This document shows, in pieces, positions 2,294 to 12,700 of a stretch of DNA of 12,700 bases. Both the position numbers and the translations under genes were made by a program. The DNA lies in contig CAZHPN010000171.1 in NCBI GenBank assembly GCA_964534375.1, positions 1 through 12,700 on the forward strand, in the 5' to 3' direction. This DNA comes from an uncultured bacterium. Its GTDB lineage: Bacteria; Lernaellota; Lernaellaia; Lernaellales; Lernaellaceae. Under the pieces are notes generated by a model. It saw nothing but the letters and a program-made list of their open reading frames with translations, made no database searches and had not been told where the DNA came from. The stretch's first letter is position 1. Each line of letters opens with the position of its first letter.

Positions 2294-4462
2294 GTGATCG
2301 AGAATGCCGCGTCGTCGCCGTTCGAGTCGCGCAGCGTCAACCGAACCGACTTTGTGAAACGCACCATGAGTTCTCAGTTTCGGGCGACGGATGAAATCGC
2401 TTTGGAAAACGAGTCGCTGCGCGGCCGCGTCGCCGAACTGACGGCGCGTCTGGCGGCGCTGGCGCATCTCGACCGGGATTTCGCGGCCGAGCGCGCGTTT
2501 CTGCAAAACATCATCGTTTTGAATCCCTACGCGATTCAGATCCTCGATCGCGACGGCCGGCACGTAATGGCGAACGACGCCTTTCGCGGGCTGTTCGGCG
2601 GCGAGCCGCCGGCCGGTTGGTCGGTGTTGGAGGACGCGCAGATCAACGCGCTGACCGGGCCCGGCGAAGTCCAGAAACTCCGCGACGGAAAGATCCTGCG
2701 GATGTGCGTCGAATCGCCGTTCAACCCGAGCAAATCGTTGCCCAACGACGCCGTCCGGGCGCCCGATCGCACGGTCTGGATCAAGACCGTCGCCTTCCCG
2801 GTGTTCGATGCGCACGGCGAGATCACGCGCTTCGTCGTCATGCACGAAAACATCACCGACCGCAAGCGCGCGGAGCAGTCGCTACGCTCCGCCGAGGGTC
2901 GCTTTCGCTCGCTGATCGAAAAGTCGACCGACCTGATCGCCATCGTGGACGCCGACGGCGCCGCGGTCTACGTAAGCGGGTCGATCGAACCGGTCTTAGG
3001 TTGGACGCCCGAGGAATTGCTCGGCAAGCCGATCATGTCGTTGGTGCACCCCGAAGACCGCGCCCTGGTGAGGGACGGCATGGTCCGTTGCCTGGCGGCG
3101 GTGTCCGGCGAACCGGTTTTCGCCGCGCCGCGCATGCGCCACAAGAACGGCGCCTTCCGGCGCCTGGAGTGCACGGGCCGCAATTTGATCCGCGACGCCA
3201 CCGTCGGCGGTGTGGTGCTCAACGCCCGCGACGTAACGGAGCGGGAAACAGCGCAGGCCCGGCAACAGGCGGTCGAGGCCAAACTTCGTCAGGCGGAGCG
3301 GCTGGATGCTCTCGGCGCCCTTGCCGGCGGCATCGCCCACGATTTCAACACGGTGCTGGCGATCATTCACGGGTTCGCGGAAGAGACGTTGGCCGACGTC
3401 GCGGCGGACTCCGGCGTCGCCCGGAACCAGGAGCAGATCCTGACCGCCGTCAAGCGCGCCCGCGGGCTGGTCGAGCAAATTTTGACTTTCAGCCGCGCGG
3501 AGGCGGGGACGGTCAAACGGCCGGTGGCGATGAACCGCATCGTTCACGAAACGCTGAATATGCTGGCGGGGTGCATCCCGCGCTCGATCAAGATCGTGCG
3601 CCGCCTCGATCCGGCCGCCGGGCACGTCGTGGCCGACCCCAGCGAAATCCAGCAAATCGTGATCAACCTCTGCACCAACGCCCATTTCGCCATGGAGCAG
3701 ACCGGCGGCACGTTGACCGTTTCCGTGGCGCCCGTGCAACTCGCGGCCGGCCAACGCCTCGACGCGCCGCTTGCGCTGGCGGCGGGGTTCTACTGCCGCC
3801 TGACGGTCAGCGACACTGGCAGCGGCATGGACTCGGCGACGATCGCCCGCATCTTCGAGCCATTTTTCACAACCAAGCCGGTCGGCCAAGGCACGGGCAT
3901 GGGCCTGGCGGTCGTTCACGGCATCGTCAAGAGCCACGGCGGCGACATCCTCGTCGAGAGCGGGCCCGGGGAAGGCTCAGCGTTTCACGTTTTTCTGCCG
4001 CAGACTGAAGAAGTGGAGCGCGACGAAATCGAAGAACCCGGCGGCCTGCCGCTCGGCTCGGAACGAATCCTGCTCGTCGACGACCAACTGCAGATGGTCG
4101 CTGTTTACAAAGCCATGCTCGAACGGTTGGGATACCAAGTCACGTGTTTCACGAGCAGCGTGCGGGCGCTGAATGCGTTTCTGAAGAACCTGACCGCCTT
4201 CGATCTCGTGGTGACCGATCAGGTCATGCCGAAATTGACCGGGTTGGCGCTGGCCCGGCGCATCCGCGAACGGCACGCGGACCTGCCGATTCTGCTGACC
4301 AGCGCGCACGAGAAGAAACACATTCTCGACGAAATCGACCGGATCTCGCACGTCCGTTTTTTGCGCAAGCCGTTTTCCAAGCAGGTGTTGGCGACAACGG
4401 TTCGCAAAATGCTCGACCGGCCGGCCGCGCCCGCCGCGGCGCCGCCCCAGGGAAGTGACTAA
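2294..4462 (+). CDS. Cytoplasmic hybrid sensor histidine kinase (coiled coil-PAS-PAS-HisKA-HATPase_c-REC), CckA-like architecture
   Basis: H box LAGGIAHDFN, N box INLCTNA, G1 DTGSGM, F box FEPFFTTK, G2 GTGMGL; receiver ILLVDD...VVTDQVMP...LRKP; PAS motifs (LGWTPEELLG, VHPED). No transmembrane helix evident. Start may be GTG 2294 or ATG 2366. Confidence 0.95.
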   Translation: MIENAASSPFESRSVNRTDFVKRTMSSQFRATDEIALENESLRGRVAELTARLAALAHLDRDFAAERAFLQNIIVLNPYAIQILDRDGRHVMANDAFRGLFGGEPPAGWSVLEDAQINALTGPGEVQKLRDGKILRMCVESPFNPSKSLPNDAVRAPDRTVWIKTVAFPVFDAHGEITRFVVMHENITDRKRAEQSLRSAEGRFRSLIEKSTDLIAIVDADGAAVYVSGSIEPVLGWTPEELLGKPIMSLVHPEDRALVRDGMVRCLAAVSGEPVFAAPRMRHKNGAFRRLECTGRNLIRDATVGGVVLNARDVTERETAQARQQAVEAKLRQAERLDALGALAGGIAHDFNTVLAIIHGFAEETLADVAADSGVARNQEQILTAVKRARGLVEQILTFSRAEAGTVKRPVAMNRIVHETLNMLAGCIPRSIKIVRRLDPAAGHVVADPSEIQQIVINLCTNAHFAMEQTGGTLTVSVAPVQLAAGQRLDAPLALAAGFYCRLTVSDTGSGMDSATIARIFEPFFTTKPVGQGTGMGLAVVHGIVKSHGGDILVESGPGEGSAFHVFLPQTEEVERDEIEEPGGLPLGSERILLVDDQLQMVAVYKAMLERLGYQVTCFTSSVRALNAFLKNLTAFDLVVTDQVMPKLTGLALARRIRERHADLPILLTSAHEKKHILDEIDRISHVRFLRKPFSKQVLATTVRKMLDRPAAPAAAPPQGSD

Positions 4463-4842
4463 TGGCCGCGATCCTCGTCATCGACGACGACGAACAGACG
4501 GCCGCACTGCTGCGCCAGATGCTGGAGCGCGCCGGCTATGAGGTGCTCTCGGCCAACAACGGCGCCGAAGCGGTCAAGCTGCTCGAGCGGCATGACGTGA
4601 AGGTCATCGTCACCGACATCCTGATGCCCGGCATGGATGGCATGGAGTTGATCCTAAAATTGAAATTCGAGAAAAAGGCGCCGATCATCGTCGCGGTGTC
4701 GGGCGGCGGCAAGTACTACGGCGCCGGCGAGTGCCTTACTTGGGCCAGGAATCTCGGCATCCAACACACCTTCGCGAAGCCCATTCCGCGAACGGCGTTC
4801 CTGAACAAGATCCGCGAACTGATGACCGATCGTTCCGCATGA
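4462..4842 (+). CDS. Single-domain response regulator (CheY-like receiver)
   Basis: ILVIDDD, IVTDILMPGMDG, AVSGG, FAKP motifs; TAATG stop/start overlap with the kinase. Confidence 0.95.
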   Translation: MAAILVIDDDEQTAALLRQMLERAGYEVLSANNGAEAVKLLERHDVKVIVTDILMPGMDGMELILKLKFEKKAPIIVAVSGGGKYYGAGECLTWARNLGIQHTFAKPIPRTAFLNKIRELMTDRSA

Positions 4843-4922
4843 CCTGTTGCACTCGGCCGCGGAGCCAAATTGGCTTTGTTTCGTAATTTTTCGTAAACGC
4901 CCACCGCTAATTCGCTCCGAAA

Positions 4923-4938
4923 TGTTTCACGTGAAACA
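4923..4938. promoter_or_regulatory. parS: parS centromere-like site (perfect)
   Basis: TGTTTCACGTGAAACA, an exact match to the widespread bacterial parS palindrome. Confidence 0.92.
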
Positions 4939-5038
4939 CATTTTGCGGCTTTTATCCGCGTTTATTGGAAGTTTACCTTGGTCCTCTGCGCGATTTTCGC
5001 GACTCCGTCTCACTTATTCGATCAAAATAACCTCGAAG

Positions 5039-5100
5039 GCGCCCGATTACGCATTTGTTTGGTTGTTTATCCGCGAATGCGCCCGACTACGCATTTGTTT
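5039..5100. repeat. 22-bp direct repeat pair between the two parS sites
   Basis: GCGCCCGATTACGCATTTGTTT (5039-5060) and GCGCCCGACTACGCATTTGTTT (5079-5100): 1 mismatch, 40-bp period. Confidence 0.85.
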
Positions 5101-5131
5101 AGCCGCGAATACACATAAGCGAGACCGCGAA

Positions 5132-5147
5132 TGTTTCACGTGAAACC
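5132..5147. promoter_or_regulatory. parS: parS site (1 mismatch)
   Basis: TGTTTCACGTGAAACC, 15/16 match, 209 bp from the first site. Confidence 0.85.
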
Positions 5148-5198
5148 GCGTAAATTAGCGATATTCGTGGTTTATCATCATTTGCTTATTTGTATAAC

Positions 5199-5270
5199 CG
5201 CGAATGCACGCGAATGCACGCGAATAGGAACGGATATGCGAGCTCATGCTCTTATTCACGCGCATTCGCG
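5199..5270. repeat. REP-like element: tandem 10-bp units followed by an inverted copy
   Basis: CGCGAATGCA x2 plus CGCGAAT (5199-5225), and inverted arm ATTCACGCGCATTCGCG (5254-5270, 2 mismatches). Confidence 0.7.
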
Positions 5271-5765
5271 ATTTGCTGCCATCCTCTGCGGGAACTCCGC
5301 GTCGGAGCCTGCCAAGACGGCAAGGTCCCGAAGCCGAAACCCTCGACATATTTCTCCGCCAGGATCGGCCCGTTCGCCACGAAATAACCGGTTCGCCTCG
5401 TCAACCGATAGCCAGCTTCCGCGGCGTCGTTCGTGTCGTTGGGAAAACCGGCCCCCTCGCTGATGCCGCAGGAACGGAGAGGCTGGCGCGCTTTTCTTCG
5501 CGCTCTTCGCGTCTTTGCGGTGAGAATACCAGAATCACATCCCGGTGGACGCAACGCGGCCGCCGGCGGCAGCCAATGATTTGTGGCGCGGTGCAAAGAA
5601 TTTCGCGGTGGGTATAGTACAGTTCCCCGTATCGGCGTACGGCTCGTCGACCGCGCGCCCCATCTGGTCTGACTCCAGGCGGAGGTGCTCAGGGACGCCC
5701 AACAGACATTAACTTTTGCGCAAACGACGTTCACGCAAGAAAAATCGCCAGCTAACTCTTTTATT

Positions 5766-5911
5766 GCTTGACTTTGTGAAATTTGCGTAGCACTCTTCGG
5801 GACGTGTTGGAAGCTCCGGACTCGGGGCACGGTTACTCTTCATAAAAATAATAAGAGAAAAATAGTTGGTGTCGGTGCCGGGATACGTTTGCGTGGCGAA
5901 AGGAGGGTGCC
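5766..5911 (+). promoter_or_regulatory. Upstream promoter/leader segment of lipoprotein copy 1 (duplicated at 7217-7362)
   Basis: TTGACT at 5768 is exactly 144 bp before the ATG, as in copy 2. Weak -10 (CACTCT) at 17 bp; CTCTT-N12-AAGAG inverted repeat at 5836-5857; AAAGGAGG RBS. Confidence 0.65.
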
Positions 5912-7174
5912 ATGAGAAACGGGTTCTTGGGTGCGCTGGGCTTGTTGATGGCGATGGCCATCGCTTTTTTGGGCGCGTGCGCCCCGTCGAGCAGCAGCGG
6001 CGGAAATCATCCGGCCGACGACGACGCGTCGCCGGCGGATGACGACGCCTCGCCGACGGACGACGACGATAACGACACGACGCCGCCCGCAGACGATGAC
6101 GGCTCGCCAGATGATGACGACAATGACGACACATCGCCGGCCGACGACGACGACAACGACGACAACGACGATAACGACAACGACGACACGACGCCGCCGA
6201 CCGACGACGACAACGACGACGACAGCGCAACGGATGTCTTTGCGGTCGGCGACAATGGAACTATTTTGCACTACGATGGGACAACTTGGTCGCCCATGGC
6301 GAGCGGAACGACCCTTCCGTTACAATGTGTTTGGGGTTCCTCCGGAAGCGATGTCTATGCAGTCGGGGTCGGGACGATAATATATTTTGACGGTTCGGCG
6401 TGGTCGAACGTGCCAAACGTCCCCGAAGCAGGGAACGTGAATTTCGATGGAGTCTGGGGCACTTCGCCATCCGACGTGCTTGCCGTAGGCGGCGACCAAT
6501 CGTCAGGCAGGGCCGTCATCATGCATTACAATGGGACGATGTGGTCGGTTCAGTGGACCGCCGGAGCCTCCCTGGGGCTGTCTCAGTTGAGGGGCGTCTG
6601 GGGAAGCGCCGACTCGGGCGTTTTTGCGGTGGGCGAGTGGTCCCTGGATAATTACCCCCCTTCCCCGCCGGTCACTGGCGGATTTGTTGTCGACAAAGAC
6701 GGCGCTTCCTGGACTACGTCGGCCAACTCGGACATGTTTGGTCCGTTTCTAGCCGTCTGGGGAACCTCCCATTCCGACGTCTTCGCCGTGGGCTGGATTC
6801 CCAATGAAACCGGGAATCCGGGCGGCAATCAAATCGTTCATTACGACGGCGTCTCCTGGTCGGATATGGCCGTGCCGACGCAGGACGTCGCTGCTGTCTA
6901 CGGCATCTGGGGCACATCTTCCTCCGATGTATTTGCAATCGGCCAATATTACAAACTCGCGTTCATTGACCATTACGATGGCTCATCGTGGTCCCAATTG
7001 ATCACGTCGCCTTTTCAATTTCTCGGACTTTGGGGCGGATTCGCGGCGGACGTATTTGTTGTCGGGTGCGACGGCAACGCGGGCCTCATTGTTCACTACG
7101 ACGGTTCGGCGTGGATCACCATGCTTGCCGGGCTGCCAAATCCATTGTGGAGTGTTTGGGGCGTCGCGAAATAA
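5912..7174 (+). CDS. Lipoprotein copy 1: signal peptide II, Asp-rich linker, 7-repeat beta-propeller-like domain
   Basis: Strong RBS; hydrophobic N-terminus with lipobox LGAC (Cys23); poly-Asp/Pro/Thr linker; seven [VIL]WG motifs with recurring WGxSxSDVFAVG...HYDGxxW units. Confidence 0.92.
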   Translation: MRNGFLGALGLLMAMAIAFLGACAPSSSSGGNHPADDDASPADDDASPTDDDDNDTTPPADDDGSPDDDDNDDTSPADDDDNDDNDDNDNDDTTPPTDDDNDDDSATDVFAVGDNGTILHYDGTTWSPMASGTTLPLQCVWGSSGSDVYAVGVGTIIYFDGSAWSNVPNVPEAGNVNFDGVWGTSPSDVLAVGGDQSSGRAVIMHYNGTMWSVQWTAGASLGLSQLRGVWGSADSGVFAVGEWSLDNYPPSPPVTGGFVVDKDGASWTTSANSDMFGPFLAVWGTSHSDVFAVGWIPNETGNPGGNQIVHYDGVSWSDMAVPTQDVAAVYGIWGTSSSDVFAIGQYYKLAFIDHYDGSSWSQLITSPFQFLGLWGGFAADVFVVGCDGNAGLIVHYDGSAWITMLAGLPNPLWSVWGVAK

Positions 7175-7177
7175 TGA

Positions 7178-7219
7178 GTGCAGCCAAACATAGGCGCCAG
7201 CCACTTTTGCGGCGCGGCT
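7178..7219 (+). repeat. Junction motif copy A
   Basis: GTGCAGCCAAACATAGGCGCCAGCCACTTTTGCGGCGCGGCT, 3 bp after the copy 1 stop and directly abutting the duplicated promoter segment. Confidence 0.9.
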
Positions 7220-7362
7220 TGACTTTACGAAATTTGCGTCGCACTCTTCGGGACGTGTTGGAAGCTCCGGACTCGGGGCACGGTTACTCTTCAGAAAAAT
7301 AATAAGAGAAAAATAGTTGGTACGGGCGCTGGGATACGTTTGCGTGGCGAAAGGAGGGCGCC
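7217..7362 (+). promoter_or_regulatory. Upstream promoter/leader segment of lipoprotein copy 2
   Basis: Same length as, and near-identical to, 5766-5911; TTGACT at 7219; AAAGGAGG RBS. Confidence 0.65.
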
Positions 7363-8568
7363 ATGAGAAACGGGTTCTTGGGTGCGCTGGGCTTGTTGAT
7401 GGCGATGGCCATCGCTTTTTTGGGCGCGTGCGCCCCGTCGAGCAGCAGCGGCGGAAATCATCCGGCCGACGACGACGCGTCGCCGGCGGATGACGACGCC
7501 TCGCCGACGGACGACGACGATAACGACACGACGCCGCCGGCAGACGACGACGGTTCGCCGGCTGATGACGATAACGACGACAGTTCGCCCGCGGACGACG
7601 ACGACAACGACGACGACAGCGCAACGGATGTCTTTGCGGTGGGCTTGAACGGCGCGATTGTGCACTACGATGGGGCATCTTGGTCGCCCATGACGAGCGG
7701 GACGCCGAACGATTTAACCGGCATTTGGGGGAACGGCGGCTCCGACGTTTTCGTCGTTGGCTACCCCAGTGTCGTTTTACATTACGATGGTTCCCTTTGG
7801 TCAACCGTGGCAAGCATACCGGATACGGAATACGGCGGCCTTGCCTGCGTCTGGGGAACCTCGCCATCGGATGTGTTTGCGGCAGGCTACGAAGGAGGCC
7901 AAAATGGCGTCATCCTTCATTACGACGGCACCGCGTGGTTAGTTCAGTGGACAGCCGGTGTTTCATTGGGCGTTTCTGAAATACGGGGAGTTTGGGGAAT
8001 CGCCAGCACCAATGATTTTGTCGTCGGCGAATCGAGTGCCAATAATGCCGCGCCCTTTCCTCCGATCGTTAGCGGATTAGTTTTAGACAACAAGAACGGC
8101 TCCTGGACCGAGATGAACAACACCGGGTCCTTGGGCCCGCTTAACGCCGTCTGGGGAACCTCGCAATCGGACGTCTTTGCCGTGGGCTGGATTCCTAACA
8201 GCACGGGTAATCCCGGCGGGAATTTAATCATGCATTATGACGGGCTCTTGTGGTCGAACATGCCGGTTCCGACCGATGACACTGCCTTTGTAGCCGGAAT
8301 CTGGGGTGCATCTTCTTCCGACGCGTTCGCGGTCGGCGCGGATTACGAGGGCGGCTTCGTATTCCGCTACGACGGATCGTCGTGGTCGACAGCGACCAAC
8401 GCCGCCTCCGGCTTGTACGGAATCTGGGGTTCCTCGGCCGCCGATGTGTTTGCCGTCGGCCGGGATAACGACGCGGGTGTGATTCTGCACTACGACGGTT
8501 CGTCGTGGACCACGACGACCGCCGGGTTGTCAAACTCATTAAACGCCGTTTGGGGCGTAAAGCGATAA
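7363..8568 (+). CDS. Lipoprotein copy 2: same head, linker 19 aa shorter, divergent 7-repeat beta-propeller-like domain
   Basis: First 176 nt identical to copy 1; lipobox LGAC; seven [VI]WG motifs; ends VWGVKR versus VWGVAK. Confidence 0.92.
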   Translation: MRNGFLGALGLLMAMAIAFLGACAPSSSSGGNHPADDDASPADDDASPTDDDDNDTTPPADDDGSPADDDNDDSSPADDDDNDDDSATDVFAVGLNGAIVHYDGASWSPMTSGTPNDLTGIWGNGGSDVFVVGYPSVVLHYDGSLWSTVASIPDTEYGGLACVWGTSPSDVFAAGYEGGQNGVILHYDGTAWLVQWTAGVSLGVSEIRGVWGIASTNDFVVGESSANNAAPFPPIVSGLVLDNKNGSWTEMNNTGSLGPLNAVWGTSQSDVFAVGWIPNSTGNPGGNLIMHYDGLLWSNMPVPTDDTAFVAGIWGASSSDAFAVGADYEGGFVFRYDGSSWSTATNAASGLYGIWGSSAADVFAVGRDNDAGVILHYDGSSWTTTTAGLSNSLNAVWGVKR

Positions 8569-8603
8569 CGACACGGTGGCCGAGCCGGCCGCAACGCCTC
8601 AAC

Positions 8604-8641
8604 GTGCCGGCCAAACATAGGTGCCAGCCACTTCTGCGGCG
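8604..8641 (+). repeat. Junction motif copy B
   Basis: GTGCCGGCCAAACATAGGTGCCAGCCACTTCTGCGGCG, between copy 2 and the headless fragment. Confidence 0.9.
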
Positions 8642-8645
8642 GGAC

Positions 8646-9152
8646 CTGCCAAGCGGCACGACAGGCCAGCCGACCGCTGTGTGGGGAAGCTCTTCCTCAA
8701 ACGTGTTCGCCGTTGGCACAGACGCCGTGTATAACGGGTTGGTGTTGCTCTACGACGGAACCTCATGGTCGACGATTGCCGTCATGACCGAAACGAGCTT
8801 GTACGGGATCTGGGGCAACTCTTCCTCGAACGTGTACGCCGTCGGATACACCTCGACGGGAGACTGGGCCGTGATTTTGCACTTCGACGGTTCCTCGTGG
8901 TCCGCGATGCCAAACCAACTGACGGGGGCGAACGGATTGAACGGCGTGTGGGGCAGCGCCCCCTCGGACGTGTTTGCCGTCGGGCCGGATTATTACACGG
9001 GGCCCGTCGTGATTGCGCATTATGACGGTTCGTCGTGGTCGGCGATCGCGACCGGGACCACGGCAAACTTGCAAGGCGTTTGGGGCAGTTCCGCCACGGA
9101 TTTGTTCGCGGTCGGCCAGGGCGGGATCATCCTGCACTACGGGCAAAATTGA
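8646..9152 (+). pseudogene. Headless (5'-truncated or orphan) beta-propeller fragment, 4 repeats
   Basis: Propeller-like sequence (PSGTT..VWGSSSSNVFAVG) starts immediately after the junction motif. No signal peptide, linker or clear RBS. The first ~47 codons of ORF 8505-9152 are non-homologous and partly overlap copy 2 out of frame. Confidence 0.75.
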
Positions 9153-9216
9153 TCCGAGGGAAGACGGCGGCAACGAGATCGCGTTGGGCGGTGGGCAAGG
9201 ATTCGATAACGGCGTT

Positions 9217-9251
9217 GGCCGGCGGCGCCGCCGAGGGCGGTTTCGCCGGCC
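9217..9251. terminator. GC-rich hairpin between convergent genes (possible terminator or REP)
   Basis: GGCCGGCG-gcg-CCGCC-gag-GGCGG-ttt-CGCCGGCC; no U tract. Confidence 0.4.
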
Positions 9252-9293
9252 GGCTCCAAGACCCTTGCTTGTCACGGGTTTCTTTGAGCCTGC

Positions 9294-10979
9294 CTATTCG
9301 GGCGCCCGCCCGCCGAAATCGAAGTATATCGACGCCTGCATATCCCGCGTTTCGAATCGATCGACCAGGCGCGCGTGCGGCGGCACGCCGCAGTCGGCGA
9401 AATTCCGGCGGAAACGCCCGATTTCGCGAGACAGCCAGCCCGTGAGTTTGTGTGCGGAGAACACCGCCCACAACGCCAATCCGGCTTTTGAGTCCACCAC
9501 CACGACCATGAGATTTCGCGTCGCGCCAAAATCGGCCGCCCGGAGGCCTGGTTCCGCGTAGTAGTAAATGCCCGGCTTGCCTTGATCCCAGATCGAGGGC
9601 GGCGTTTCTCCCGGCCAAAATCGGTTGCACTGGCTGAAGCGAAAACCCGCCAAGCGGTGTTGCGCCACGACCGCGGCGACGTGATGGTAGACCGCGACCT
9701 GGTTGTCAACGTTCACCTTGTAACACGGGAACAGCCGCACGGCCGCCGCCGAAATCAGGATGGCAACCGTTGTGACGCCGGTCAGCGCCGCAAAAATCTT
9801 GGCGTGGAACGGACCGTTTTCACGCCAGTTTCGGTAAGGCGGCGACCATTTCGCGTATTGGAAGAACAAGCCGGCGAAATAGCAGAGAAAAGGCGCGGCT
9901 GGAAAAAAATAATGCGTGGGTTCGAAGGTCCAGGCCGTCGTCTGGTAGCGGATAAGGTGCAACGGCAGCATCACGGCGTACGCCAAGAACAGGGCCGAGG
10001 CGCCCCCGATGATGACATGGCGGTCGGTGCGCAGCGTCCGTAGCCAGCGACCGATCTGCAGCAGACTGAGCGCGCCGTAAAGGTTGACGCCGAGGCCGCC
10101 GAGCAGGATGGTCATCACGATGATCGGCAGCGCGGAAAAAGGCAGCGCCCGCAAAGCGCCCCGCGCGCCTCTGAGCAGATCGTCATTCTCGCTCACGTAG
10201 GCGCCGGCGGGCGCCAGGCGCGCCGCCGCTTGCTCGATGAGCGAAACATTGACCGCGGCCAGCGCCGCGACGCCGAGCAGGGTGAGCAGCAACGTCGCCC
10301 GGTCGCGCCAGAACCGCGTAACGATCATCGTGGGCACGATCAATAACACGGCGGACATATGGATTTGCATGGCGATGCCGAGAAACAGCCACGCGGGTGC
10401 GATCGTCCACGTCCGGTCGCGGGCGGACAACGCCAGAAAGCAGAAATAGATCGCGAGGAAAAACGGCAGGTAATAATTGTGCTGGGCGGCGAACGGCGTC
10501 ATCAGAAAATGGAAGGCAAAGGCAGCGGCGGCGAACCACTGGCCTGGGCCGTCGCCGAACAATTGCCGCAGCGCGAAAAAGATCAGCGCCAGCGCAAAGA
10601 TGTCCAACAAGGTAACAAAATAATATTGCGCGCGGAGGTCGCGCGAGATGCGCAGCGGCAGGAGGCTCCAATAATTCGCGAACGAACCAAGGCGAAATCC
10701 GTAACCGACAAGGTTGCCCTGATCGAGCGGCTGACCCGAGTCGAAGTAGTTGATCGTCCGCTTCAAGAAGACGTCGACGTCCCCGTCGACTGCGCGCAGA
10801 TCGAACGCGTGGAAAAGAACTTGCACGGCGAAAAACGACGCGAGACCGGCGATCAACAGGTTGCGCAAACCGCGGGGCGGAACCGCGCCGGCCGACCATG
10901 CGCCGATTCCCCGATTCCCATGTTCGCCGTCTCGCACGTCTCTAATCGTTCCCTCCCGCGCGCCTGCCGGCGTTCGCAA
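9294..10979 (-). CDS. Polytopic membrane protein, probably GT-C fold (ArnT/PMT-like) glycosyltransferase; start uncertain
   Basis: About 10 or more hydrophobic segments; acidic DGDVD loop after the first helix; ArnT-like spacing of motifs (G..LG..A.Y, LGIAMQIHMSA, HYFFPAAPF); soluble C-terminal tail. The TTG start at 10979 is doubtful. Confidence 0.7.
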   Translation of the reverse strand: MRTPAGAREGTIRDVRDGEHGNRGIGAWSAGAVPPRGLRNLLIAGLASFFAVQVLFHAFDLRAVDGDVDVFLKRTINYFDSGQPLDQGNLVGYGFRLGSFANYWSLLPLRISRDLRAQYYFVTLLDIFALALIFFALRQLFGDGPGQWFAAAAFAFHFLMTPFAAQHNYYLPFFLAIYFCFLALSARDRTWTIAPAWLFLGIAMQIHMSAVLLIVPTMIVTRFWRDRATLLLTLLGVAALAAVNVSLIEQAAARLAPAGAYVSENDDLLRGARGALRALPFSALPIIVMTILLGGLGVNLYGALSLLQIGRWLRTLRTDRHVIIGGASALFLAYAVMLPLHLIRYQTTAWTFEPTHYFFPAAPFLCYFAGLFFQYAKWSPPYRNWRENGPFHAKIFAALTGVTTVAILISAAAVRLFPCYKVNVDNQVAVYHHVAAVVAQHRLAGFRFSQCNRFWPGETPPSIWDQGKPGIYYYAEPGLRAADFGATRNLMVVVVDSKAGLALWAVFSAHKLTGWLSREIGRFRRNFADCGVPPHARLVDRFETRDMQASIYFDFGGRAPE

Positions 10980-11298
10980 GCGGCGCTTTCCGCCCGCCGC
11001 CGCGATCGAACTTCTTCGCCGGCTTCGCGCTGCTGAATTCGCGCCGCGACACCTTTCCCGTCGGGCTGGAGGACTGCATTTTTGGCCAGTTTTGGCGGGA
11101 AATCAAGGAACAAAACGAGAAGCGATAGGCAGTTTCCGGCCGCCGGAGCGCAATTGGGGCAAGCGTTCCATCGCGGATTTTCGGTCTTCAAACTCGCGCC
11201 GCAGGTTGTCGAGGGGCTGAGCAGTGTGGGATACTTGCCGCAAGCGAACGCCGGGGGGACGCCGGCGAAGCGCCGCTTTTCGCTACATTGGGGGCGGC

Positions 11299-11430
11299 AT
11301 GACGGAGTTGCATCGCCGGGCGGACCTTGCTGAAAACACACGCGGAGCGCCGCGCCGCGTTTTCTATTTTCTCGCCGCGCTGGTCGCGCTGGTGTATTCG
11401 TTTCGCTTCTTTGTCTACGCCCAAACATAG
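11299..11430 (+). pseudogene. Possible 5' remnant of a membrane-protein gene ending at the junction motif/IS boundary
   Basis: MTELHRRADLAENTRGAPRRVFYFLAALVALVYSFRFFVYAQT*: a charged N-terminus plus one transmembrane helix; the stop is the TAG of CCAAACATAG. Confidence 0.4.
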
Positions 11431-12566
11431 TGTAACGTTACAGTAAAATCTTTACAATTGGCACGGAGTGTGCTATCGTTGGTTTCATGTGGAAACCAGC
11501 CAAACCATTGCCGATGACGGAAGAGCAGCGCAAGACTTTGGACGCCTGGGTGCGCGCCAAGACGTCGCCGCAGCGAATCGTCCTTCGATCCCGGATTTGT
11601 CTGCTCGCGGCGGCGGGCGTTTCCCATAACGCCATTGCCAAAAAACTGGGCACTTCTCGCCCCACCGTTTTGTTGTGGACGGACCGCTTTCGGGGTCAAG
11701 GTCCTGCGGGTCTGGCGGAAGATGCGCCGCATGGACCCAGTGCCCGCAGTCTGACTGCCGCAAAGATCAACGCGGTCGTGGAAGCGACACTTCACACGAC
11801 GCCCAAGGACGCCACCCACTGGTCGACGCGGACCATGGCCCGCGCCATGGGCGTCAGCAACGCCACGGTGTCCCGCATCTGGGACGCGCATGGCTTGCAG
11901 CCGCATCGCGTGCGGGGATTCAAGCTCTCGAAAGACAAACGTTTTGTCGAGAAGTTGACGGACGTCGTCGGCGTTTACCTGAATCCACCGGACAAAGCCG
12001 TGGTGTTGTGTATGGACGAAAAGACGCAAATTCAGGCGCTGGACCGGACGCAGCCGGGTTTGCCGTTGAAGAAAGGTCGCTGCGGCACGATGACGCACGA
12101 TTACCAGCGCAACGGGACGACCTGCCTGTTCGCCGCCTTGAATGTGCTGGAGGGCAAGGTCATCGGTTCCTGTTATCCGAGACACCGAAACATCGAATTC
12201 CGGAAATTCCTGCACCAGATCGATCGCGCCGTCCCCCCCGAGTCAGACATTCACATGATCCTGGACAATTACGGCACGCACAACCATCCAAAGGTCAAAG
12301 CGTGGTTGGAAAAGCATCCCCGCTTTCATCTGCACTTCACGCCGACCAGTGCGTCTTGGCTGAATCTTGTGGAACGATGGTTCGGCGAGATCACGCGAAA
12401 ACGAATCCGGCGAGGGGTGTTTCGCAGCGTTCAGGAACTCATCAGCGCAATTGAAGACTACATCCGGGGCAACAACGAAAATCCCAAACCGTTCGTCTGG
12501 ACGAAAAAGGTCGAAGCCATCTTAGAAAAGACCGCTCGTTGTAAAGCCGTCATTGAAACAGTACAA
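11430..12566 (+). mobile_element. IS630-family insertion sequence (~1137 bp) with TA target duplication
   Basis: TA at 11428-11429 and 12567-12568. Imperfect terminal IRs: GTGTAACGTTACA versus the reverse complement of the right end, TTGTACTGTTTCA. Removing the element restores CCAAACATAGGTGC, matching the junction motif. Confidence 0.93.
11451..11479 (+). promoter_or_regulatory. Transposase promoter
   Basis: TTTACA (11451-11456), 17 bp, TATCGT (11474-11479) with extended -10 TG at 11471-11472. Confidence 0.6.
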
Positions 12567-12569
12567 TAG
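11487..12569 (+). CDS. IS630-family DDE transposase, intact single ORF
   Basis: N-terminal HTH; THWSTRTMA, CMDEKTQIQALDR, MILDNYGTH, HFTPTSASWLNLVERWF, NENPKPFVWTK motifs; the stop codon uses the duplicated TA. Confidence 0.97.
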   Translation: MWKPAKPLPMTEEQRKTLDAWVRAKTSPQRIVLRSRICLLAAAGVSHNAIAKKLGTSRPTVLLWTDRFRGQGPAGLAEDAPHGPSARSLTAAKINAVVEATLHTTPKDATHWSTRTMARAMGVSNATVSRIWDAHGLQPHRVRGFKLSKDKRFVEKLTDVVGVYLNPPDKAVVLCMDEKTQIQALDRTQPGLPLKKGRCGTMTHDYQRNGTTCLFAALNVLEGKVIGSCYPRHRNIEFRKFLHQIDRAVPPESDIHMILDNYGTHNHPKVKAWLEKHPRFHLHFTPTSASWLNLVERWFGEITRKRIRRGVFRSVQELISAIEDYIRGNNENPKPFVWTKKVEAILEKTARCKAVIETVQ

Positions 12570-12627
12570 GTGCTGCCAAACGTAGGTGCTGCCAAACGTA
12601 GGTGCCAGCCACTTTTGCGGCGCGGCT
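12567..12627 (+). repeat. Junction motif copy C with tandem expansion of a 16-bp unit
   Basis: TAGGTGCTGCCAAACG x2, then TAGGTGCCAGCCACTTTTGCGGCGCGGCT; the left part of the first unit (CCAAACA) lies at 11421-11427, across the IS. Confidence 0.9.
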
Positions 12628-12648
12628 GCGTGGCGAAAGGAGGGCGCC

Positions 12649-12700
12649 ATGAGAAACGGGTTCTTGGGTGCGCTGGGCTTGTTGATGGCGATGGCCATCG
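12649..12700 (+). CDS. Lipoprotein copy 4 (partial; runs off the window end)
   Basis: AAAGGAGG RBS, then 52 nt identical to the starts of copies 1 and 2 (MRNGFLGALGLLMAMAI). Confidence 0.88.
   Translation, partial: MRNGFLGALGLLMAMAI

Follow-up and report, generated by a model that had tools for sequence, protein, structure and literature searches.

Recurrent gene conversion probably keeps the 5' ends of tandem predicted lipoprotein genes alike in an uncultured Lernaellota bacterium

In cassette antigenic variation, as at vls and pilE/pilS, one expression site is accompanied by promoterless partial cassettes closely similar to the expressed region, and the variable region is heterogeneous within the population. 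A first-pass annotation, made from sequence alone, had proposed a candidate cassette-based surface diversification system for a tandem array of predicted lipoprotein genes in an uncultured bacterium of the phylum Lernaellota. The array starts at position 5766 of a stretch of 12,700 nucleotides, hereafter the window, which is the entire contig C171 (GenBank CAZHPN010000171.1) of a genome bin of 381 contigs, 6.3 Mb and 94% completeness. Three other described families come closer to this locus. In Staphylococcus aureus, the lpl genes are tandem lipoprotein-like paralogs whose conserved and variable parts have separate histories; a conserved block, central in these otherwise divergent genes, is a site of homologous recombination that shuffles the variable 5' and 3' halves and changes the gene order from strain to strain (Tsuru & Kobayashi 2008, PMC2568036). 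The babA, babB and babC paralogs of Helicobacter pylori have homologous N-terminal and C-terminal regions around a paralog-specific middle, and conversion within the first ~60-240 bp yields chimeras with the 5' end of another paralog; the loci are dispersed, and the conversion moves a phase-variable CT repeat, altering expression (PMC4552749). The Vpma and Vsp lipoproteins of mycoplasmas are encoded in gene clusters with shared DNA just upstream of the start codon and divergent mature parts; the Vpma system needs an adjacent tyrosine recombinase, Xer1, and has a single promoter and inversion sites at -1 to -72 (PMC2268961).

Copy 1 of the array (5912-7174, + strand) translates into 420 aa, with a signal peptide bearing the lipobox LGAC (Cys23), then a Ser-rich stretch and an Asp-rich linker that extends to about residue 105, and finally a propeller of 317 aa (6221-7171); its exact protein is recorded in two further assemblies. 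Copy 2 (7363-8568, + strand, 401 aa in translation) has the same architecture, with its propeller at 7615-8565. In both, a hydrophobic stretch precedes L-G-A-C23, as read from the sequence by pattern, and the linkers are built of DDDxSP/DDND units. Copies 1 to 3 are accordingly described here as encoding predicted lipoproteins, which would be lipidated and exposed at the cell surface. Each of the first two genes is preceded by a segment of 146 nt (5766-5911 and 7217-7362, both + strand), which in copy 1 starts with TTGACT, holds the ribosome-binding site AAAGGAGGG and is presumed to comprise promoter and 5' untranslated region (UTR). These segments had been called near-identical at first pass; they are indeed shared, but the likeness is lower than that term implies, with 136 of the 146 positions matching (10 differences, 93%). 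No further copy of the segment was found anywhere in the genome bin, Rfam gave no match in the window, and the 5' UTR folds no better than shuffled sequences (z = -0.14). Homology between the two copies starts abruptly, exactly at the octamer TTGACTTT (5766 and 7217), which may be a -35 element. The same octamer also stands upstream of a sister paralog on contig C112 (at ~9035), where the upstream region is otherwise unrelated.

Sequence comparison of copies 1 and 2 gave an exact run of 179 nt (5909-6087 = 7360-7538, + strand). It takes in the 176 nt of identical 5' coding sequence reported earlier, which proved exact, and is the most recent conversion tract between the two copies. A second exact run of 45 nt (6202-6246 = 7596-7640, + strand), also as reported, covers the end of the linker and the first propeller strand (DDNDDDSATDVFAVG). 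Between the two runs the Asp-rich linker holds a 57-nt indel and scattered changes. The propellers then diverge abruptly at an equal length of 317 aa, as had been seen, with 56% protein identity, mostly 45-70% identity in 60-nt windows, a synonymous divergence (dS) of 1.15 and a nonsynonymous divergence (dN) of 0.36.

The third head that had been noted at 12649 is real and is cut by the contig end. Similarity to the other copies begins at 12627 with a ribosome-binding site, the ATG stands at 12649, and 74 nt of this copy lie within the window (12627-12700, + strand). A degenerate pattern for the first 12 head residues located four loci on three metagenome contigs (L116, L117 and L119), which are independent assemblies from other samples and have the same structure. 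L116 matches window positions 10789-12700 at 99.8% and continues into a complete copy 3 of 401 aa; L119 matches 10649-12700 at 99.9% and extends 179 nt beyond the window into the same gene; L117 matches 3912-7614 at 99.8% and covers copy 1 with 0 differences. In L116 and L119 alike, the only differences from the window fall at 12685, 12687 and 12693, sites at which the window has the letters of copies 1 and 2. Over its last 16 nt the contig has probably followed the wrong path through the assembly graph, that of copies 1 and 2. The propeller of copy 3 is absent from the bin, in which the best tblastn match to the propeller of copy 2, besides copy 1, is the gene on C112 (57%). Copy 3 does not have the 121-nt upstream segment of copies 1 and 2 and retains just 22 nt of shared upstream DNA. 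A promoter-like site (TTGTAA-17 nt-TACAAT, 12539-12567), a consensus match only, lies at the right end of an insertion sequence of the IS630 family and points to copy 3.

In a codon alignment of the three genes, with copy 3 taken from L116, each part of the head has its own pattern of likeness. Copies 2 and 3 have exact runs of 58 nt (7341-7398 = L116:1839-1896, + strand) and, in the linker, of 126 nt (7492-7617 = L116:1969-2094, + strand), and copy 1 differs from both from 7539 on; the exact runs between copies 1 and 3 measure just 39 and 47 nt. Thus, in the signal region copy 1 equals copy 2 and copy 3 is ~90% identical to each, while in the distal linker copy 2 equals copy 3 and copy 1 is 83-90% identical. 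Signal-region dS is 0 for copies 1 and 2 and 0.165 for either of them against copy 3; over aligned linker codons it is 0.074 between copies 2 and 3 and 0.31 between copies 1 and 2. The propellers of all pairs are mostly 45-75% identical in 60-nt windows, with dS of 1.01-1.15 and dN of 0.30-0.36. Expressed differently, copies 1 and 2 have 0 synonymous differences in ~22 synonymous sites of the signal region and a proportion of synonymous differences (pS) of 0.59 in the propeller. The sliding-window comparison of identity and dS that had been proposed as a check gave, for copies 1 and 2, a dS of 0 in the signal region and of about 1.15 in the propeller. When the order of the 461 polymorphic sites was shuffled, the observed concordant run was reached in 0 of 10000 trials for copies 1 and 2, in 10 of 10000 for copies 2 and 3 and in 9495 of 10000 for copies 1 and 3; since no shuffle reached the run of copies 1 and 2, the pattern is not due to chance.

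The descent of the propellers does not follow that of the heads. In a maximum-likelihood tree of 16 family propellers, picked from the best matches together with a headless propeller fragment of the window, copies 1, 2 and 3 form one clade with a dispersed gene, C112:9105-10403 (support 100/100), and within it the C112 gene is sister to copy 1 (95/86). This gene has a signal peptide and an upstream region unrelated to those of the three copies, and no family neighbour. Head history conflicts with propeller history: likeness of the heads tracks position in the array and that of the propellers tracks descent, and two histories in one gene are a signature of recombination. The earlier argument that simple ageing of a duplication would not give such a locus is upheld by the dS contrast (0 in the signal region versus ~1.0-1.15 in the propellers), the patchwork and the tree conflict, and the same three lines of evidence bear out gene conversion as the source of the common head.

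A strain variant adds a further layer. Over ~3.7 kb, L117 differs from the window by one change at 5049 and by three changes within 7421-7455, in the head of copy 2: a T>G at 7421 that gives L20W, a synonymous change and a deletion of 3 nt. Logan contigs of four metagenome runs (X1-X4) were also placed on 5400-12700; X1 is possibly the sample from which the window was assembled, and the runs containing window DNA are labelled wetland or peat. The three differences seen in X3, put into the window sequence, reproduce head 2 of L117 exactly, and a protein from a 13,808-nt contig of another assembly (P0006) carries the variant head 2 on a propeller identical to that of copy 2. The zero differences between heads that had been reported thus hold in this assembly and in X1 but not in L117, X3 and P0006. 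Such a density, three changes within 35 nt where the other ~3.7 kb have a single one, points to the footprint of a very recent conversion in one of the two lineages. The L20W change places an unusual residue at -3 of the presumed lipobox and may impair the lipoprotein processing of copy 2 in the variant strain. In X1, by comparison, a contig of 179 nt falls exactly on 7360-7538, with no other letters, at a depth of 19.4. Depth is 8.5 and 8.33 on the long unique pieces 6217-7270 and 7611-12656, respectively, and 20.2 on a piece common to copies 2 and 3 (7509-7625). The twofold depth is consistent with two exact copies. Two kinds of signal in these contigs were discarded. Joints from 6150-6187 to 7574-7594, 8168, 8481, 9006-9096 and other places, which might be taken for recombinants, were treated as cross-matches from other genes, their shorter sides being 20-39 nt of GAC-rich linker DNA with 80 or more matching places in the genome; similarly, a depth of ~2249 in the X1 bin 6132-6375 does not reflect copy number and was caused by GAC-rich cross-matches.

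The likely explanation, offered with good confidence, is that gene conversion between the tandem paralogs has acted repeatedly on the 5' module, a familiar process with no switching system. The locus would be a tandem array of at least three complete paralogs and one truncated remnant, each complete gene encoding a predicted lipoprotein signal peptide, a Ser-rich stretch, an Asp-rich tether and what would be a seven-bladed beta-propeller. The propellers would have split long ago (dS ~1) and have each been retained by purifying selection, and they probably bind different ligands at the cell surface. The 5' module, of ~480 bp from the upstream segment to the first propeller strand, would be kept alike by recurrent, short, non-reciprocal homologous recombination between neighbours, presumably RecA-type gene conversion between directly repeated modules 1.45 kb (copies 1 and 2) and 5.3 kb (copies 2 and 3) apart. 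Tracts would measure ~50-200 nt, in patches that differ in partner and age, and the GAC-rich linker would both supply homology and change length by slippage. A shared promoter and export head would be either selected, for common regulation, export or tether length, or a by-product of proximity. The case for gene conversion is clean but ordinary, the process being already known.

Several points weigh against this explanation. The head-2 event may have run in either direction and at any recent time, and the variant strain was perhaps itself converted from an unsampled donor. The depth in X1 is not proof of two exact copies, because Logan contigs do not break at every branch, nor is it independent support, X1 possibly being the source sample. 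All data are short-read assemblies or Logan contigs, which lose rare variants, and the array is seen only as assembled contigs, never as one molecule across all copies. Among the like-headed gene pairs of the whole family, described below, 17 of 23 lie on different contigs, so that either proximity is not the sole factor or the assembly hides linkage. Head DNA matches none of 40 other genomes, all of which belong to other genera.

Repeat collapse or bubble popping during assembly, with true heads that differ, could also produce identical heads; the window is, after all, a contig that ends inside the repeat, in a bin of 381 contigs, copy-1/2 letters stand in its last 16 nt at sites where copy-3 letters are found in L116 and L119, and two other assemblies and run X3 have a head 2 with three differences. 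Yet a popped bubble spanning three variants is estimated to give a mean depth well under twofold, against the 19.4 on flanks of 8.3-8.6 in X1, and the 10 differences in 146 positions upstream indicate two distinct loci. Moreover, the variant head 2 has only three differences in 179 nt, against about one third of propeller positions; being nearly identical too, it leaves the mosaic standing whichever version is correct, and an artefact of this kind is highly improbable. Still harder to credit is purifying selection alone, with a head that it holds unchanged and propellers free to drift or diversify. In its favour, signal peptides, lipoboxes and tethers have functions, and head variants such as L20W could be deleterious; but selection on protein does not hold synonymous sites, which contrast sharply between signal region and propeller, the non-coding upstream DNA is also 93% identical, and the sister gene on C112 shows that a head can be exchanged altogether. 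A single recent capture of the head, in which a promoter-signal-linker module was moved or duplicated by an illegitimate or IS630-associated rearrangement, would suit the IS630 element directly upstream of copy 3, the abrupt start of copy 1/copy 2 homology at 5766/7217 and the behaviour of a 42-nt motif of the array (D9), whose right end borders on three different sequences within the window, with a fourth, at 7223, in X3. Such a capture is unlikely, however: it predicts one age where the layers are several (93% upstream, 100% in the signal region of copies 1 and 2, 83-90% in their linkers, 100% in the linker of copies 2 and 3 and ~90% in the signal region of copy 3), the strain-specific change in head 2 is at least one further and very recent event, and the IS630 element is single-copy and its ends do not flank the module.

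A programmed cassette system, in which silent donors (a promoterless copy 3 and the headless fragment) feed propeller sequence into one or two expressed genes by way of the constant head and so vary a surface protein, can call on the conserved 5' block and the common 42-nt motif that flank the variable propellers, on the upstream segment wanting in copy 3, on the one headless piece and on the fact that conversion does happen at the locus. It nevertheless requires changes where none were found. All detected tracts lie in the head and zero in the propellers, which are old and each under purifying selection: the dN/dS ratio is 0.28-0.33 for all six pairs among copies 1, 2 and 3 and the C112 gene, with 0.13-0.20 at conserved blade motifs and only 0.33-0.50 elsewhere, at loop positions. 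No variant letters were found in the propellers in any of the four runs over 7.3 kb, variants being confined to the head, although contigs can hide rare variants. Head-propeller recombinants, which the first-pass annotation had advised looking for, did not appear among the assemblies: pairings and gene order are identical in L116, L117, L119 and P0006, which sample one population. That annotation had named fixed pairings with no mosaicism as the outcome that would speak against it; the pairings are fixed for the propellers, and mosaicism is present, inside the head only. No paralog is more than 57% identical to the fragment. Neither a closely similar silent cassette nor a heterogeneous variable region was encountered. 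Head residues 1-40, searched against 5.8 billion protein clusters, matched two clusters, those of copies 2 and 3; the cluster of copy 1 is represented by a headless fragment, and the head is thus found on the three genes of the array only. Copy 1 has an upstream segment, a ribosome-binding site and a start codon of its own, as does copy 2, and all copies lie on the + strand. Pfam detected no domain of a recombinase, invertase, reverse transcriptase, Rhs protein or toxin in 20 frames of the window, which ends at 12700, and NCBIfam none in the eight frames scanned with it. Pfam matches above cut-off fell in five of the 20 frames: ribosomal protein S2, a histidine kinase, a response regulator, the IS630 transposase and frame 11415-12215, a chance reverse-strand frame overlapping the transposase gene. 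No reverse transcriptase, as in a diversity-generating retroelement, lies near the array within the window, and the single RVT_1 match of the genome is a 159-aa frame on contig C265. The analogy with orphan modules of Rhs or contact-dependent inhibition (CDI) systems that had been drawn fails in the same searches, which returned no Rhs/YD or filamentous haemagglutinin repeats, C-terminal toxin or adjacent immunity gene; the variable part here is a complete propeller. A cassette or diversification system is therefore not supported, and in its programmed form is very unlikely; nothing indicates programmed switching. A looser arrangement in two tiers, with copies 1 and 2 expressed, copy 3 and the fragment as silent donors, and the head and the 42-nt motif as homology arms, is thought distinctly unlikely as well; if true, it would mean a recombining repertoire of ~150 genes for tethered surface binders, with swaps too rare to reach consensus contigs.

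The array differs from each of the described families. The recombining block of lpl is central, while here it lies at the 5' end and includes upstream DNA; the array has head homogenisation only, with no reshuffled propellers or change of order in the assemblies examined, and belongs to a different protein family and phylum. Compared with the bab genes, those of the array are in tandem, their head repeat is of an in-frame GAC type, no on/off switch is evident, and the host is a free-living wetland organism. In contrast to Vpma/Vsp, the window has no recombinase, its copies have one orientation, and at least two of them carry the full upstream segment. The array illustrates how tandem genes for surface proteins can have promoter, export signal and tether in common and yet keep separate binding domains, here in a phylum that has been little studied and in a protein family without a catalogue entry. 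There is a practical side as well, in that this genome assembly breaks at shared heads and Asp-rich linkers, so that such families are under-counted and contig ends may carry the sequence of a neighbour.

The family itself, with no curated entry, is more telling about surface biology than the conversion. A tblastn search with the propeller of copy 2 gave 150 distinct stop-to-stop frames on 98 contigs (C53, C234, C335, C316, C150 and C239 among them), which amount to 73,589 codons or 3.5% of the genome; these figures are approximate, as a few frames overlap. The lipobox pattern fits 98 of the 150 frames, and 80 of these 98 have at least two DDD within the 80 residues past the Cys. A family neighbour lies within 1.5 kb of 58 of the 150. 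At the 5' end, 28 of the 150 run off their contig, six of them beginning in the linker, and contigs C346 and C317 begin at the same residue of one shared head; shared heads may cause these contig breaks. Six genes (on C142, C301, C66, C92, C332 and C4) have a head of the form MKKTWLLLLVLALSAVLLAACASGGSSSSK with 77-88% DNA identity, and propellers 36-60% identical. Head DNA is at least 80% identical in 23 of 4371 gene pairs, and 22 of these 23 have propellers with a protein identity of 61% or less; the head-homogenising tendency is present, more weakly, in other tandem pairs of the family. When 96 family genes were compared all-versus-all by blastn (at least 93% identity over at least 60 nt), only the C171 pair, among 19 rows, was a true shared head: 17 rows were the same DNA extracted twice for adjacent genes and were set aside, as was a recent duplicate, C332+376/C344-465.

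Outside this bin, the family is unevenly spread. Among the 40 other genomes searched, those of the same taxonomic family gave 0, 4, 4, 6, 15, 15 and 68 matches, against 134 in the present genome, these being matches and not genes; four genomes outside the taxonomic family gave 2-4 each. Six loci of the relative with 68 matches (G006) have the same architecture, and the few gene starts visible in them looked unalike by eye, some stretches being masked. A profile of 40 sequences retrieved, from 1.84 billion, 59,522 cluster representatives at E <=1e-3 and 13,188 at E <=1e-30, and the propeller relatives come from many phyla. The window propeller proteins had no Pfam or NCBIfam match above cut-off, and the profile found none at E <=1 among PDB sequences. 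Pfam hits to DUF6087 and Rax2, at or below cut-offs and spanning ~20-40 residues, were dismissed as chance repeat matches. No window protein matches Ycf48/PSII_BNR (PF14870), and one of the 40 alignment members does at E 5e-5. A literature search returned nothing on this propeller family as an expanded lipoprotein family, and a term search of one paper naming the phylum Lernaellota found no mention of lipoproteins or propellers.

The propeller sequence contains six complete WG...DVFAVG motifs, and an N-terminal DVFAVG strand together with a C-terminal VWG strand presumably closes a seventh blade. An AlphaFold2 model of the propeller of copy 2 is all-beta, with a predicted local distance difference test score (pLDDT) of 91.2 and a predicted template modelling score (pTM) of 0.90. 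Foldseek ranked Ycf48 first (PDB 5ojr and 2xbg; E 1e-9, template modelling score (TM) 0.60, 17% identity) and also returned BtuG-type B12-binding surface proteins of Bacteroides, lipoproteins according to their PDB titles (8ptd and 8bmz; TM 0.65-0.69). Ycf48 is a lipoprotein in cyanobacteria. The seven-bladed propeller fold would be shared with both, at a sequence identity of only 8-18%; since this is likeness of a generic fold, no ligand can be deduced from it. That the array proteins may be tethered surface binders is, on the model, a lead and not a function.

The headless propeller fragment noted at 8646 is confirmed as a truncated piece (8646-9152, + strand) with 168 open codons (8646-9149) and four blades, lacking the closing strand and any start codon that would open a signal peptide. 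The paralog nearest to it in the genome lies on C84 (57%), and in the propeller tree the fragment falls outside the clade of the three copies and the C112 gene; it is probably the remnant of a different family member and not a donor copy of the array genes. The 42-nt D9 motif, with the core GCCAGCCACTTTTGCGGCGC, lies on the + strand just 3' of the copy 1 stop codon (7178-7219) and again 3' of the copy 2 stop codon (8605-8646), where it directly abuts the fragment; a third (12586-12627), preceded by two 16-nt tandem units (together 12570-12627, + strand), stands before copy 3. The core (GCCAGCCACTTYTGCGGCGC) has 11 sites in the genome with at most two mismatches, most of them preceded by locus-specific tandem units of 13-16 nt that end in GGTGC; dispersed intergenic sites include C131:17380-17540, C181, C201, C120 and C143. 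Of the three sequences abutted by the right end of D9, one is the promoter segment, another the ribosome-binding site of copy 3 and the last the propeller fragment. A contig of run X3 leaves the window sequence just past D9, at 7223, a recurrent breakpoint.

The IS630-family insertion sequence occupies 11428-12569 (+ strand), with TA at both ends as read from the sequence (11428-11429 and 12567-12568) and a transposase gene at 11487-12569 that matches NF033545 (275 bits, cut-off 100) and DDE_3. It is found at the same place in L116 and L119 and is inserted inside a D9-bearing element, its left flank (11419-11430) holding a further partial tandem unit. D9 was considered as an inverted-repeat end of the insertion sequence and rejected; no inverted partner was found, and the insertion sequence sits within the motif. 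Between the headless fragment and this element, an open frame of 561 aa (9294-10979, - strand) resembles by eye a hydrophobic multi-pass membrane protein; it had no Pfam or NCBIfam match, and its exact sequence is absent from the protein collection searched. Further left, the window contains rpsB and tsf as well as genes for a hybrid histidine kinase and a response regulator; in the gap that separates the last of these from the array is a direct repeat of 33 nt (5028-5060 and 5068-5100), its units being 88% identical and 40 nt apart.

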